Positions 39,239-42,168 are shown, numbered from the stretch's first letter. The stretch: DNA of 64,000 nt from Clostridiales bacterium (GCA_003150035.1 QALR01000015.1:3005-67004), one strand, 5' to 3'. Notes: generated by a model from the sequence alone, not told the origin. Translations and numbers: made by a program.

Positions 39239-40330
39239 ATGGTTACCGTCAGCCTGTGTATGATTGTAAAAAATGAAGAAGCTGTTCTCGCCCGGTGTCT
39301 TGACAGCATCCGGGAAGGCGTTGATGAAATCATTGTCGTCGATACGGGAAGCACCGATAAAACCAAGGAAATCGCGGCCCGGTATACCTCCCGTATATAC
39401 GATTTTGAATGGAACTTCGATTTTTCCGCCGCCCGCAATTTTTCCTTTTCCAAAGCTACGATGGATTTTGCCATGTGGTTGGATGCAGACGATGTTTTTA
39501 CAAAAGAAAATCTCGCGGCCTTTCTCCAGCTGAAACAAACAATACCGAATGACGTGGATACCGTTATGATGCGATACAATACAGCGTTTGACGAAAATGG
39601 GAACCCGGTCTTTTCCTATTATCGAGAACGAATGATCCGTACGAATATTCCGTATGAATGGAAAGGAAGAGTTCACGAAGCGATTGTCCATGCCGGACGC
39701 TCTATGTATTCCGATGTGGCCGTGAACCACAAGTCGATTAAAACCGTTTACAGCGACCGCAATCTGAAAATTTATGAGAAGCAAAAGGCGGCAGGCGAGC
39801 CTTTCACCCCGCGGGACACCTTTTACTATGCGAGAGAGCTCTACTATCATAAGCAATATGACAGGGCCATCGATATGCTGAACGGCTTTCTCTCCGACGG
39901 ACGCGGTTGGGTGGAGAACAACATTGAAGCCTGCAAAATCTTATCCTGTTGCTATAGAGAAAAAGGGAATTTTTCACAGGCCATCGCCGCACTTTCCGCA
40001 TCCTTTCAGTACGATATGCCCCGTGCGGAAATTTGCTGTGAAATTGGAAGCCTTTGGATGCGCATGCAAAACTACCGCACCGCCGCATTTTGGTACGAAC
40101 TTGCCCGCGTGGTTCCCCGCAACGACAAAAGCGGCGGTTTTATATCAGAGGATTCCCACGGCTATCTGCCCTGTATTCAGCTCTGCGTCTGTTACGACAA
40201 GCTTGGCAATCACAAAAAAGCAGAGGAATACAACCGCATGGCTGGCACATTTCGTCCGTCCTCACCCGCCTATTTGCAAAACTTGGAATACTTTAGCCGG
40301 CTTTCTCCGCACTCTCCCGAACATTCGTGA
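39239..40330 (+). CDS. GT2-family glycosyltransferase with a C-terminal TPR-like domain (SunS / protein-glycosyltransferase-like)
   Basis: SLCMIVKNEEAVLARCLDSIREGVDEIIVVDTGSTDKT...NFDFSAARNFS...WLDADD (the DxD), then GRVHEAI, then helical repeats (ARELYYHKQYDRAIDML..., AAFWYELA...). Confidence 0.8.
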   Translation: MVTVSLCMIVKNEEAVLARCLDSIREGVDEIIVVDTGSTDKTKEIAARYTSRIYDFEWNFDFSAARNFSFSKATMDFAMWLDADDVFTKENLAAFLQLKQTIPNDVDTVMMRYNTAFDENGNPVFSYYRERMIRTNIPYEWKGRVHEAIVHAGRSMYSDVAVNHKSIKTVYSDRNLKIYEKQKAAGEPFTPRDTFYYARELYYHKQYDRAIDMLNGFLSDGRGWVENNIEACKILSCCYREKGNFSQAIAALSASFQYDMPRAEICCEIGSLWMRMQNYRTAAFWYELARVVPRNDKSGGFISEDSHGYLPCIQLCVCYDKLGNHKKAEEYNRMAGTFRPSSPAYLQNLEYFSRLSPHSPEHS

Positions 40331-40393
40331 ATATATTACATTGAGGCAGTTTCTTTCTGGGTCTGTCTCATAAAGAAAAACATTAAGGAGTGT

Positions 40394-42127
40394 ATGCATA
40401 TGAATTCCAATCCTTATAATAGAAGGAACCTTTGCCCAAGATGCGGACGGCCCATCGATTGCTGCACATGTGGTAATTGCTGCTGTGAAATCGTAGGTCC
40501 GACAGGCCCGACGGGTCCCACCGGGCCCACTGGGCCGATGGGATTTCCAGGGATTCCCGGTCCTATAGGTCCAACCGGGCCGATGGGATTTCCGGGGCCC
40601 ACCGGGCCCACTGGCGCAACCGGTGCCACAGGCGCCACGGGGCCTGCAGGCGGTCCGACAGGACCTACAGGTGCAACCGGTGCAACGGGTGCCACAGGTG
40701 CTACAGGTGCGACCGGCCCACAAGGGCCACAAGGGCCAACGGGGCCTGCAGGATCTAACGGTCTGATGGGTCCGACAGGACCTACAGGTCCTGCCGGATT
40801 AAACGGAGCAATGGGCCCAACAGGGCCTACCGGTGCAACCGGCGCCGCGGGATCCAACGGCCAAATGGGTCCCACCGGACCCACAGGTGCTACAGGCGCG
40901 ACTGGCGCTACGGGCGCAACAGGACCTACCGGTCCTACGGGTCCAACAGGACCCACGGGTGCAACGGGCGCCACGGGACCTACCGGAGCTACCGGCGCCG
41001 CAGGCACCAACGGTCAAATGGGACCAACCGGCCCCACAGGTGCCACAGGTCCGGTAGGACCGGCAGGGGAAGCGGGCCTCAGCGTTACAGGTCCAACCGG
41101 CCCCACAGGTCCCACTGGGCCAACGGGTCCAACCGGTCCCACGGGTCCTACGGGTCCCACCGGTGCAACCGGTGCGACAGGCGCCACAGGTGCAACTGGT
41201 GCCACAGGGCCGGCAACCATAACCCTCGGCACTGTTTCCACCGGGGATCCCGGGAGTGACGCGGCTATTACCAATACCGGCGGCAGCAGTGCCGCAGTAT
41301 TCAATTTCACCATTCCACGCGGCGATACCGGCGCGACAGGTGCAACAGGTCCTACTGGTCCAACAGGCGCAACAGGTCCTACTGGCCCCACGGGTGCAAC
41401 CGGCGCCACAGGCGCAACAGGTATAACGGGTGTGACCGGCCCGACGGGTCCTACAGGCGATACCGGTCCTACAGGCGATACCGGTCCTACGGGCGATACC
41501 GGTCCTACAGGCGACACTGGTCCTACCGGTCCTACGGGCGACACTGGTCCTACCGGTCCCACGGGTCCTACAGGCGATACCGGTCCTACCGGCGATACCG
41601 GTCCTACCGGGCCTACGGGTCCTACAGGCGACACTGGTCCTACCGGTCCCACGGGTCCTACAGGCGATACCGGTCCTACCGGCGATACCGGTCCTACCGG
41701 ACCTACCGGCCCTACCGGTCCCACAGGTCCTACGGGTCCTACCGGGGCTGCCGCAACCATTGCGGTTGGCACCGTTTCCACCGGAGATCCCGGAGCGGAT
41801 GCTAGCGTAACCAACTCCGGAACCGCCGAAAATGCCATCTTTGATTTCACCCTCCCGCGCGGTGCAACCGGCGCGACAGGTGATACCGGCGCAACAGGCG
41901 ACACCGGTCCTACAGGTCCTACGGGCGATACCGGTCCTACCGGTGACACTGGCCCTACCGGTGACACTGGCCCTACCGGCGACACTGGCCCCACCGGCCC
42001 TACTGGTCCTACAGGTCCCGTTACACCGGCCGCTCCCGTATCAGATGCAACAGGCACGGGCGACATTGTCCAACAGTTCAATGAACTTCTGGCCAATATG
42101 CGCACAGCAGGTCTGCTTGAGACTTAA
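40394..42127 (+). CDS. Collagen-like (G-X-T triple-helix repeat) protein, BclA-like, with a Cys-rich N-terminus and two internal globular modules
   Basis: Long runs of GPT/GAT/GDT triplets with no signal peptide. RBS AAGGAG at 40385-90; the true start may be the second ATG at 40400. Mirror-image GPV ORFs on the opposite strand are artefacts. Confidence 0.9.
41537..41700 (+). repeat. Higher-order 90-bp tandem repeat inside the collagen-like gene
   Basis: 41537-41610 is identical base for base to 41627-41700 (74 nt, offset 90). It lies within a 9/18-bp periodic tract spanning about 41455-41745. Confidence 0.9.
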
Positions 42128-42139
42128 TTGACAGACGGG

Positions 42140-42168
42140 GAGAGGGAAAACGAATCGTTTTCCCTCTC
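42140..42168 (+). terminator. Hairpin terminator after the collagen-like gene
   Basis: Perfect 13-bp stem GAGAGGGAAAACG-AAT-CGTTTTCCCTCTC. The U-tract is weak (TACCTTTAT). Confidence 0.6.

Follow-up and report, generated by a model that had tools for sequence, protein, structure and literature searches.

The locus described here raises the question of why a gene for a GT2 glycosyltransferase with tetratricopeptide repeats (GT) lies directly upstream of a gene for a long collagen-like protein. The two genes sit within a window (the whole stretch of DNA that was analysed) of 64,000 nt. The initial annotation proposed that the enzyme glycosylates the Thr-rich product of its neighbour and that together they build a spore-surface or cell-surface filament. 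Judged by its sequence, the pair is a clear relative of the Clostridioides difficile sgtA-bclA3 spore-surface system. The features of the locus are as follows, with the basis of each assignment in parentheses.

39175..39201, + strand: putative sigmaK-type promoter (motif AC-N16/17-CATAnnnT)
39239..40330, + strand: sgtA-like protein glycosyltransferase gene, 363 aa (Pfam GT2 and TPR; SgtA homology; AF2 fold)
40331..40393, + strand: intergenic gap of 63 nt with ribosome-binding site AAGGAG at 40385-40390 (terminator scan; fold z-score; sequence)
40394..42127, + strand: collagen-like fibre gene, 577 aa, BclA3-type without globular head (Pfam Collagen; triplet count)
40394..40495, + strand: N-terminal 34 aa with 8 Cys, proposed anchoring or cross-linking segment (relatives' N-termini)
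40496..41215, + strand: collagen-like region 1, aa 35-274 (triplet count; tandem repeats)
41216..41320, + strand: insert module 1, aa 275-309 (phage tail-fibre similarity)
41321..41752, + strand: collagen-like region 2, aa 310-453, rich in GPT and GDT (triplet count; tandem repeats)
41753..41860, + strand: insert module 2, aa 454-489 (phage tail-fibre similarity)
41861..42022, + strand: collagen-like region 3, aa 490-543 (triplet count)
42023..42124, + strand: C-terminal 34-aa tail with one amphipathic helix, proposed trimerisation cap (conservation; model)
42137..42172, + strand: strong hairpin, probable operon end (fold energy; sequence)

Both reading frames, their strand and the gap between them were found as originally described. 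The likelier start of the fibre gene is the ATG at 40400, which lies 9 nt past the AAGGAG sequence. A consensus scan called no canonical terminator in 38700-42700, either between the two genes, where the initial annotation had also seen none, or at the hairpin that follows the fibre gene, and the fold of the gap was not significant (z = -1.7). That hairpin, which had been noted directly 3' of the second gene, is real and strong, although its U tract is weak: it starts 10 nt past the stop codon and has a fold energy of -24.4 kcal/mol (z = -5.3), which none of 200 shuffled sequences equalled. The arrangement suggests that the GT and fibre genes are probably co-transcribed. In 32 orthologous arrangements, the gap between the GT and collagen genes ranged from 12 to 207 nt. 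The pair is flanked upstream by genes for an acyl-AMP ligase, an ACP and an M28 peptidase, and downstream by cdd-deoB and the dcw cluster; the description of these flanks as housekeeping, with no phage structural genes, held across the 64-kb window, and the identical synteny was found in five independent contigs. The host belongs to the uncultured gut Clostridia, is Oscillospiraceae/Eubacteriales-like, and is known only from metagenomes. Among candidate sporulation markers in the window, the SpoVD model was the best match for the PBP, at a score under its cutoff, and the SpoVE/FtsW assignment was ambiguous.

The GT matched Pfam Glycos_transf_2 (E = 1.4e-25), with TPR matches over aa 185-351. 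It comprises a GT-A/GT2 catalytic domain (approximately aa 3-170) followed by a TPR-like helical domain (approximately aa 174-355), and is a soluble protein with 10 Cys and neither a transmembrane segment nor a signal peptide. The sequence WLDADD (aa 80-85), a DxD-type motif, was invariant in 27 GT homologues. The AF2 model (pLDDT 93.6) showed a Rossmann-like β/α domain and then 10 helices, and its sole full-length fold matches were SunS/ThuS (Foldseek E = 1e-20 to 6e-19, TM = 0.63-0.66). These HMM and fold comparisons, which had been suggested as a check, bore out the architecture of a GT-A+TPR peptide or protein glycosyltransferase.

The C. difficile sgtA-bclA3 reference was recovered from metagenome contigs via the published forward cloning primer, and the identity of SgtA was verified by its length of 358 aa, its 10 Cys and its reverse-primer-encoded C-terminus, HNENYFSKFKNS. 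The GT aligned with this authentic SgtA over 355 aa with no gaps (48% identity, 67% positives, E = 2e-133), and SgtA gave the same GT2+TPR Pfam profile. With UDP-GlcNAc as donor, SgtA attaches β-O-GlcNAc to Thr in collagen-repeat peptides of BclA3 (PMC7157674). The next relatives, GmaR by sequence (E = 2.4e-31; profile E = 6.8e-39 over aa 4-186) and SunS/ThuS by fold, are likewise protein or peptide glycosyltransferases, which supports a protein-glycosylating role for the GT. From these relationships, the GT most likely glycosylates its Thr-rich collagen-like neighbour; the sugar could differ from GlcNAc, the identity to SgtA being 48%.

The fibre matched Pfam Collagen in nine stretches (E = 2.7e-63). 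By strict count, 435 of its 577 residues are in G-X-Y triplets, so that the first estimate of about 430 was accurate, and the statement that Y is almost always Thr corresponds to 116 of 145 triplets (GPT 66, GAT 31, GDT 17). Region 1 is interrupted twice by one or two residues, at aa 89 and at aa 231-232. Kyte–Doolittle, motif and Pfam analyses agreed with the earlier statement that the protein has no signal peptide, LPXTG motif or wall-binding domain: no hydrophobic segment (maximum 19-residue value 0.68), no LPXTG-like motif and no Lys were found in the fibre. Because the fibre has neither a signal peptide nor an anchor, the "cell-surface filament" half of the original proposal is unsupported.

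The N-terminus of the fibre holds CC and CCC motifs and is near-identical in the collagen-like partners of the GT homologues L006, L007, L008 and L012; insert module 1 is also found in the L008 and L012 partners. A local β-hairpin was predicted for insert module 2 in a low-confidence model. The C-terminal tail is conserved in four other species (L010, L011, L025 and L071), contains a helix at aa 554-571 (pLDDT ≈81), and gave a weak match to Pfam Phage_head_fibr (E = 0.0017). The fibre gave no Pfam match to BclA_C and extends just 34 residues past its last collagen triplet; we propose that this tail may be a trimerisation cap that replaces the globular head. The independent contig L001 confirmed the fibre over ≈430 aa from its N-terminus and ≈190 aa from its C-terminus. 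Within the mid-repeat region, every contig of the species is either broken or interrupted by an N gap, and L001 itself shows an 18-residue length difference in collagen region 2, followed by an assembly gap.

In 80 genomes of other Clostridia species, we looked for collagen-like genes on the same strand as the GT gene and no more than 600 nt away from it. A collagen-like ORF abutted the GT gene in 46 of the 80 species, where the background rate is 0.84 per 100 kb, and clustering of the 80 loci showed the collagen-like gene to be the only conserved neighbour. The co-occurrence that the initial annotation had asked about is therefore strong. At least four Cys are present in the last 35 aa before the collagen region in 29 of 31 downstream partners, and 19 partners carry a Cys-free "LSHILNAEGEKLQ" N-terminal domain. 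Pfam BclA_C was above threshold in the partners of the closest relatives, L006, L018 and L029. No collagen gene adjoins the GT gene in approximately one third of the homologues, and the GT gene of L051 is followed by one for flagellin; thus, the GT family is not confined to collagen substrates.

A promoter motif upstream of the GT gene bears on the timing of expression. In the window, the -35 element "AC" (39175-39176) is followed by a 17-nt spacer and the -10 element "CATATTCT" (39194-39201), 37 nt before the GT start codon. Among 29 GT-first operons from other species, 16 had the motif AC-N16/17-CATAnnnT in the 120 nt upstream, compared to a mean of 0.37 in shuffled sequences (maximum 4 in 500 shuffles) and 1 of 128 intergenic controls, while a sigmaA-type promoter was found in none of the 29. 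In C. difficile, AC-N17-CATATATT lies 69 nt upstream of sgtA. The published C. difficile sigmaK consensus consists of a -35 AC and a -10 CATATAAT, and both CD3350/sgtA and bclA3 belong to the sigmaK regulon (PMC3789822). This short motif suggests that the pair may be under sigmaK-type (late mother-cell) control.

The SgtA homology, the gene linkage and the sigmaK-type motif all support the original proposal that the GT glycosylates its Thr-rich neighbour and that the pair builds a spore-surface fibre. We consider it probable (about 0.72) that the locus is an sgtA-bclA3-type cassette, in which a sporulation-expressed GT O-glycosylates Thr residues of a spore-surface collagen-like fibre. In late sporulation, the mother-cell sigmaK RNA polymerase would transcribe both genes from a single promoter, as the motif suggests. 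The soluble GT-A+TPR enzyme would engage the collagen-like protein via its TPR domain and use a UDP-sugar as donor; the analogy to SgtA and GmaR makes GlcNAc the likeliest sugar. From the homology and gene linkage, we infer that the acceptors would be the numerous Thr residues that occupy Y in the G-X-T triplets. The signal-less fibre would trimerise in the mother-cell cytoplasm, probably nucleated by the C-terminal helical cap, while the two β-modules probably set the fibre register. It would then be deposited on the spore as a glycosylated surface filament, with the Cys-rich N-terminus fixing it by disulfides or metal-bridged Cys clusters, presumably to a Cys-rich outer spore layer or appendage.

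Several other explanations have to be weighed against this cassette. The fibre might be the tip fibrillum or decoration of an ENA-like spore pilus, docked through its Cys-rich N-terminus and still glycosylated by the GT, which would alter the main explanation only in where the fibre sits. The N-terminus here has eight Cys, with CC and CCC motifs, and no exosporium leader. Both L-BclA and a candidate S-ENA tip protein likewise have a Cys-rich CC-motif N-terminus without an exosporium leader, and a disulfide link of this N-terminus into the ENA ring has been proposed (PMC11362473, PMC12357932). However, BclA3, a nap or bump protein, has a similarly Cys-rich N-terminus, so the motif does not discriminate between an ENA tip and a nap. 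The C1q-like knob of L-BclA is missing from the window fibre, and the 80 loci contained no ena-type or recurrent small neighbour of the cassette; the protein scan of the window covered ORFs of at least 180 aa, and ENA-type (DUF3992/DUF4183) genes are small. We regard a pilus tip as unlikely. It is far less probable that the GT acts on the Cys cluster by S-glycosylation, or on another protein such as flagellin, with the collagen gene as a mere neighbour. The SunS family was the top NCBIfam match, no full-length fold is closer than SunS/ThuS, GmaR is the nearest sequence with a solved structure, L051 has its adjoining flagellin gene, and the N-termini of the partners are consistently Cys-rich. 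The SunS model (TIGR04195), however, scored 80.3 bits against a cutoff of 350, and with no glycocin precursor, transporter or other export gene adjacent, a glycocin S-glycosyltransferase was rejected; nor are there flagellar genes near the pair. SgtA, a far closer relative, transfers O-GlcNAc to Thr in collagen repeats, and the conserved neighbour is the collagen gene. Because some of these partners have Cys-free N-termini, what the partners share is the G-X-T region rather than the Cys cluster. An adhesin of the Scl/Lcl type, secreted or displayed on vegetative cells and glycosylated by the GT, is very improbable: the best NCBIfam matches of the fibre were indeed SclB, SclA and Lcl, but these matches rest on the collagen repeats and scored under their cutoffs (264.9 vs. 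325, 172.2 vs. 400 and 169 vs. 500 bits). The fibre has no signal peptide, transmembrane segment, LPXTG motif or wall-binding domain, and the operons are enriched in the sigmaK-type motif, with no sigmaA-type promoter in any of the 29.

The distal parts of the fibre raise the question of a phage origin. The insert module is ≈51% identical to repeated modules in the tail fibres of Eggerthella phage LE2-3, where the 36-aa module alternates with short G-X-Y runs, and Stenotrophomonas phage DLP_6. The C-terminal ≈35 aa are ≈63% identical to the extreme C-terminus of the 307-aa tail-fibre/anchor proteins of KP34-type Klebsiella phages, a similarity seen in 114 phage records. For both of these non-collagen parts, phage tail fibres are thus the nearest annotated matches. 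The "truncated" KP34-type anchor is the first receptor-binding protein and, like the window fibre, has no enzymatic head (PMC6872550). Furthermore, the top PHROG matches of the fibre were tail fibres, the GT matched phrog_13126 over its full length (E = 3e-51), distant GT homologues in viral contigs adjoin huge collagen-like ORFs, and serine recombinases were found near the GT in 7 of the 80 loci. These observations could mean that a degraded prophage lies here, with the collagen-like gene encoding its tail fibre and the GT acting as a phage moron on that fibre or on the host surface. We nevertheless consider a prophage highly unlikely. A check for a cryptic prophage, called for at the outset, found the 64-kb window free of genes for phage structure, packaging or lysis, and the housekeeping flanks are conserved. 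The PHROG matches of the fibre were driven by its collagen repeats. Viral relatives of the GT reach 49% identity at best, with most below 40% and those in annotated phage genomes at 38% or less, whereas GT copies of ≈50-72% identity occur in >500 cellular genomes. The matching phage fibres are encoded among phage structural genes and begin with N-terminal anchors specific to phages; the window fibre, by contrast, has a BclA3-like N-terminus, a putative sporulation-type promoter and a housekeeping context, and this kind of N-terminus and promoter motif is shared with the chromosomal sgtA-bclA3 locus. Another reading is that the fibre is a true mosaic, with a BclA3-type Cys anchor and a glycosylated G-X-T stalk joined to a phage-type distal end, in which the cap, beyond its part in trimerisation, would offer a site where a distal protein from a separate gene docks or branches off, and the GT2-TPR family would be a general collagen-repeat glycosyltransferase. 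Taken as a whole, this combination is unlikely. If it were true, GT2-TPR enzymes would also decorate the giant collagen-like fibres of large phages, as suggested by the GT-collagen pairs in viral contigs L094-L096 and L103-L105.

Compared with known systems, the sgtA-bclA3-type cassette shares its enzyme architecture with several protein glycosyltransferases. SunS and ThuS (PDB 7msn, 7msk) have a GT-A and TPR-like fold and act directly on peptide, like the window GT, but they share only 19-24% identity with it and S-glycosylate Cys in a small bacteriocin. Listeria monocytogenes GmaR (PDB 22ao), the closest solved sequence to the catalytic domain (about two thirds identical over aa 4-97), is also a GT2 protein glycosyltransferase with TPRs, and uses UDP-GlcNAc. 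It differs in being much longer, in being a flagellin O-GlcNAc transferase, and in also acting as an anti-repressor.

On the side of the fibre, Bacillus BclA and L-BclA are mother-cell-made, signal-less G-X-T collagen-like proteins of the spore surface; outside the collagen repeats, no sequence homology was detected between them and the window fibre. They end in a C1q/TNF-like BclA_C head (PF18573), which in BclA serves trimerisation and display; the window fibre has no such globular C-terminal domain. The BclA exosporium leader "LVGPTLPPIPP", which binds ExsF/BxpB, is absent from the 34-aa N-terminus of the window fibre. The collagen-bearing survey did show a leader of this type once, in the protein encoded next to the distant GT homologue L089.

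The closest counterpart is the pair SgtA (CD3350) and BclA3 (CD3349) of C. difficile, a member of the Peptostreptococcaceae, in contrast to the host family here. Two differences at the distal part of the fibre, both pointed out at first, are genuine: BclA3 ends in a globular "IIPFASG..." domain of ≈165 aa where the window fibre has its helical tail, and the two 36-aa β-modules inside the collagen region of the window fibre are not found in BclA3. Between sgtA and bclA3 there is also a second sigmaK-like motif, whereas the 63-nt gap of the window pair has none. The Cys-cluster N-terminus, which had been counted as a further departure from BclA, is not one, as BclA3 itself carries 6 Cys in the 35 aa that precede the collagen region; in both proteins a short, signal-less N-terminus leads from a Cys cluster directly into G-X-T collagen. 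Thr occupies the Y position in 80% of triplets in the window fibre and 74% in BclA3 (113 of 153 triplets; 459 of 680 residues in G-X-Y). The two GTs are of similar length and have the same number of Cys, each is encoded immediately upstream of the fibre gene (with a gap of 78 nt in C. difficile), and AC-N17-CATAnnnT is common to the regions upstream of both GT genes. The locus is a further example of an already known system and not a new kind, with a fibre that varies at its distal end.

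The pair consists of two forward-strand genes, and both ORFs were recovered at the coordinates assigned to them in the initial annotation, separated by a gap of 63 nt:

39239–40330, + strand: 363-aa glycosyltransferase of the GT2-TPR type (the GT)
40394–42127, + strand: 577-aa collagen-like protein (the fibre)

The fibre matches the Pfam Collagen model in nine stretches (E = 2.7e-63). G-X-Y runs make up 435 of its 577 residues, with Thr in the Y position of 116 of the 145 triplets (GPT 66, GAT 31, GDT 17). A 34-aa N-terminus containing eight Cys is followed by three collagen blocks (aa 35–274, 310–453 and 490–543) with two modules of ≈36 aa between them, and by a 34-aa C-terminal tail. 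Hydrophobic segments, LPXTG-like motifs and lysine are absent from the whole protein, and the GT, like the fibre, is soluble. The intergenic gap carries a good ribosome-binding site (AAGGAG), the spacing of which is better for the ATG at 40400, and has no significant structure (fold z = −1.7). A strong hairpin lacking a clear U tract lies 3′ of the fibre gene (−24.4 kcal/mol, z = −5.3). A consensus scan of 38700–42700 found no canonical terminator, and the probable end of the operon is therefore placed by the hairpin energy.

All same-species metagenome contigs break, or have an N gap, within the fibre repeats. One of them, L001, confirms the first ≈430 aa and the entire 3′ end of the gene, including the second module and the tail, while the remaining contigs end within the gene. 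In the second collagen region (window 41321–41752, about 12290–12443 in L001), there is an 18-residue indel ahead of the N gap in L001, which points either to strains differing in repeat number or to a collapsed assembly. Due to this indel and the truncation of the other contigs, the exact repeat count of the fibre is uncertain.

The GT matches Pfam Glycos_transf_2 over aa 5–133 (E = 1.4e-25) and several TPR models over aa 185–351. It belongs to a very large, well-conserved family of ≈360-aa proteins, with at least 7998 database proteins matched; the best 120 of these are all ≥58% identical to it, with the exception of one 487-aa outlier at 48%. The closest solved sequence is that of the Listeria flagellin O-GlcNAc transferase GmaR (E = 2.4e-31), followed by SunS and ThuS, and the match of the family profile to GmaR (E = 6.8e-39) spans the whole crystallised catalytic domain. 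An AlphaFold model made from the family alignment (pLDDT 93.6, pTM 0.86) has ten helices after its GT-A domain. When this model was compared with the PDB in Foldseek, full-length matches were limited to SunS and ThuS (E = 1e-20 to 6e-19), and generic GT-A enzymes matched at about E = 1e-8. An assignment as a SunS orthologue was ruled out by a score of 80 bits with the NCBIfam SunS model, against a cutoff of 350. In L051, a locus from a species with no adjacent collagen gene, a 697-aa flagellin gene follows the GT match (7001–8068) at a distance of 557 nt, so that some members of the family may glycosylate flagellin, as GmaR does.

Co-occurrence of the two genes in related genomes had been proposed as a check on the initial annotation. 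More than 560 GT relatives were found among the matches listed, and we scanned 80 loci, with one genome per species, from Oscillospiraceae, Lachnospiraceae, Eubacteriales, Clostridium and others, in which the GT is 48–72% identical to the window enzyme. The association held: a collagen-like ORF lies within 7 kb of the GT in 55 of the 80 loci, and at least 46 have one on the strand of the GT and no more than 600 nt from it, compared to an expected ≈1% (collagen background measured >3 kb from the GT, 0.84 per 100 kb). The count of 46 is a lower bound, since the collagen search pattern overlooked a few true partners, such as those in L013 and the fragment in L034. The order is GT then collagen, as in the window, in 32 loci. 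Cultured organisms with this order include Bacilliculturomica massiliensis Marseille-P3303 (L024) and Lentihominibacter hominis NSJ-24 (L081); in Clostridium acidisoli DSM 12555 (L083), the order is inverted. In all-against-all clustering of the ORFs around the GT in the 80 loci, collagen-like genes and their antisense artefacts were the only recurrent partner.

Of the 31 downstream partners, 29 carry four or more Cys in the 35 residues preceding the collagen region, and in the closest relatives (L006, L007, L008 and L012) the N-terminus is almost that of the window fibre, with the form N..R.NxCPRCGxPxxCCxCC. A second class of partner of the same GT family is found in an Oscillibacter-type group (L026, L029, L031, L035, L050, L052, L053 and L058), in which one or two tandem collagen-like genes lie immediately upstream of the GT. 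Each of these has an N-terminal domain of the LSHILNAEGEKLQ kind, which is free of Cys and contains LSHILNAEGEKLQY, as well as a BclA_C domain that scores strongly, at 129 bits in L029. The C-termini of the partners vary: BclA_C scores above the Pfam threshold in L006, L018 and L029, others have a BclA3-like “IIPFASG” domain or further globular domains, and the short tail of the window fibre is kept in four other species (TPAAAVADATGxDDIVxxFNxLLxNLRxAGLL). On an isolate-derived “viral” contig (L089, 5302–6000, − strand), a GT homologue of 45% identity sits beside a collagen-like gene whose product bears the Bacillus exosporium leader in its classical form, LVGPTLPPIPPFTLPTGPTG, linking the GT family to BclA-type genes in Bacilli as well.

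Of 29 operons in which the GT comes first, 16 have a candidate promoter, AC-N16/17-CATAnnnT, in the 120 nt preceding the start codon. In dinucleotide shuffles, the mean was 0.37 and the maximum 4 in 500, and among controls the motif occurred in 1 of 278 upstream regions and in 1 of 128 that were apparently truly intergenic. The −10 element alone was found in 23 of the 29 operons, against 2.3 expected. None of the 29 has a sigmaE-like (ATA...CATAyAnT) or a sigmaA-like motif. In the window, the AC at 39175–39176 is followed by a 17-nt spacer and CATATTCT at 39194–39201; C. difficile sgtA has AC-N17-CATATATT at −69. The sigmaK promoters of C. difficile are marked by “AC” at −35 and by sequences such as CATATAAT at −10, and CD3350 (sgtA) and bclA3 both belong to its sigmaK regulon (PMC3789822). 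The motif, which is the best available evidence on this point, suggests late mother-cell expression of the pair. A search for sporulation genes in the window gave SpoVD as the best match for the penicillin-binding protein, below the cutoff, and about equal scores with the SpoVE and FtsW models; the sigma factor is of the ECF type, not sigK. Other features of the window are:

99–2607, + strand: two neighbouring serine-recombinase ORFs, a Recombinase-domain fragment followed by a 543-aa Resolvase, Recombinase and Zn-ribbon protein
16628–17263: ECF-type sigma factor
18138–18812, + strand: BspA-type leucine-rich-repeat ORF
31764–34304, + strand: 846-aa E1 protein of a 2-oxoacid dehydrogenase complex, in which the alpha and beta subunits are fused; the E2 and E3 genes lie upstream
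44110–44619, − strand: ferritin/rubrerythrin/Mn-catalase-like gene
49222–51264, + strand: ispH (LytB) fused to four S1 domains

The ferritin-like gene, 2 kb from the cassette, recalls CotJC-type spore-coat proteins, and two other species have homologues (34% identity, E = 1e-25) at a distance of ≈1 kb or less from the GT (L036, 2469–2969, − strand; L064, about 570–1070 nt upstream of the GT). This could be a weak spore-coat link or mere synteny. The serine recombinases likely mark the edge of an integrated mobile element; such ORFs occur near the GT in 7 of the 80 loci (e.g., L006, 5360–6937).

Parts of the fibre resemble phage proteins. The insert module is ≈51% identical to tail-fibre modules of Eggerthella phage LE2-3, where they alternate with short G-X-Y runs, and matches the fibre of Stenotrophomonas phage DLP_6 at ≈51% identity; a PDB sequence search with the modules gave chance-level matches only (E ≥ 0.09). 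The 35-aa tail (42023–42124) matches, at ≈63% identity, the last residues (...AAAVSDATDTGDVVVKFNALLAALRTSGVLST*) of a 307-aa tail-fibre/anchor protein carried by Klebsiella phages of the KP34 type. The literature terms this protein a “truncated” first receptor-binding protein with no enzymatic head (PMC6872550). The match extends over 114 phage records; one example is gp46 of Klebsiella phage SU503 (L086, 2501–2605). The tail is predicted to form a single amphipathic helix, with a weak match to the C-terminus of the phi29 head fibre. A single-chain AF2 model of the last 134 aa of the fibre was of low confidence (pLDDT 57.6), and only its local helix and hairpin were used. Matches to PHROG tail fibres (E down to 1e-110) and to NCBIfam Scl/Lcl models were dismissed as indicators of function, as both stem from the collagen repeats and the latter fall below the curated cutoffs.

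Such resemblances might suggest that the pair is of prophage origin. However, phage genes are absent throughout the 64-kb window, the housekeeping synteny around the pair is stable in independent contigs, and the viral relatives of the GT are distant, with a best identity of 49% in viral contigs, most below 40%, and ≤38% in annotated phage genomes. The evidence is thus against a prophage. The modules and tail look like generic building blocks of trimeric fibres, and the tail is apparently a portable C-terminal cap common to Gram-negative podophages and the spore-type fibres of Clostridia. Other bacterial collagens are nucleated by a globular head; here, the tail would likely be a trimerisation cap replacing that head, with the inserts as registration modules. 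Of 80 viral loci, 20 also have collagen-like ORFs, which in some cases adjoin the GT, so that the partnership may extend to large phages. In three IMG/VR contigs of 82–172 kb (L094, 7001–13034; L095; L096), a collagen-like ORF of ≈1620 aa lies 116 nt downstream on the same strand, and in L103–L105 the opposite strand carries ORFs of 987 to >2275 aa, truncated where the locus ends. The GT relatives beside these giant ORFs are 36–37% identical to the window enzyme. This arrangement suggests that glycosylated collagen-like phage fibres exist.

In C. difficile, sgtA lies directly upstream of bclA3, and SgtA (358 aa, 10 Cys; GT-A domain, aa 1–260; TPRs, aa 262–358) transfers beta-O-GlcNAc from UDP-GlcNAc onto Thr of collagen-repeat peptides (PMC7157674). 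We retrieved SgtA by probing the metagenome collection for exact copies of the 28-nt gene-specific part of the published forward cloning primer (PMC7157674), a search that returned nine loci. The ORF beginning at the probe encodes 358 aa with 10 Cys and ends in HNENYFSKFKNS, exactly as encoded by the reverse primer, and is thus authentic SgtA. The window GT is 48% identical and 67% similar to it over 355 residues without gaps (E = 2e-133), and shares its 10 Cys and Pfam profile. BclA3, which begins 78 nt after sgtA, is 680 aa long, with Thr in the Y position of 113 of 153 triplets and a ≈165-aa C-terminal “SAIIPFASG...” domain. Direct BLAST of BclA3 against the window fibre is dominated by repeat composition and uninformative on the termini. 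The Cys-rich N-terminus had been judged atypical of BclA, but the 46-aa N-terminal domain of BclA3, ending in ...NSCDCHHCCPPSCV, has six Cys in its last 35 residues and runs directly into the G-X-T collagen, making this a feature of BclA3 itself.

The window pair is an sgtA–bclA3-type cassette, and the initial reading of a GT with a glycosylated spore-surface fibre is supported by the full-length SgtA homology, the conserved pairing, the N-terminal architecture shared with BclA3 and the promoter motif. We infer that sigmaK would drive co-transcription of the two genes, and that the GT would O-glycosylate Thr of the fibre, probably with GlcNAc. The fibre would trimerise via its C-terminal cap, assemble on the spore surface and be anchored there through Cys; for this anchoring, L-BclA with its CC-motif connector served as the model (PMC11362473, PMC12357932).

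Many gut Clostridia are transmitted between hosts as spores, whose outermost fibres and glycans determine adhesion, clumping and immune recognition, and glycosylated BclA3 is a major spore antigen in C. difficile. The cassette should allow sequence-based prediction of spore-surface glycoproteins in uncultured commensals, and it is a source of many SgtA-like enzymes with which collagen-like peptides could be glycosylated. The window locus itself mostly confirms a known mechanism; the main interest lies in the breadth of the cassette in gut Clostridia and in the sharing of modules between phage and spore fibres. Unlike BclA, the window fibre has no globular C-terminal domain, and we therefore consider it a headless variant within a family in which the distal ends can evidently be exchanged. 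The sgtA–bclA3 arrangement is not peculiar to C. difficile, but is a widespread cassette that combines a putative sigmaK-type promoter and a GT with a G-X-T fibre, probably anchored through Cys, whose distal ends are swappable; it ranges over Oscillospiraceae, Lachnospiraceae, Eubacteriales and Clostridium.
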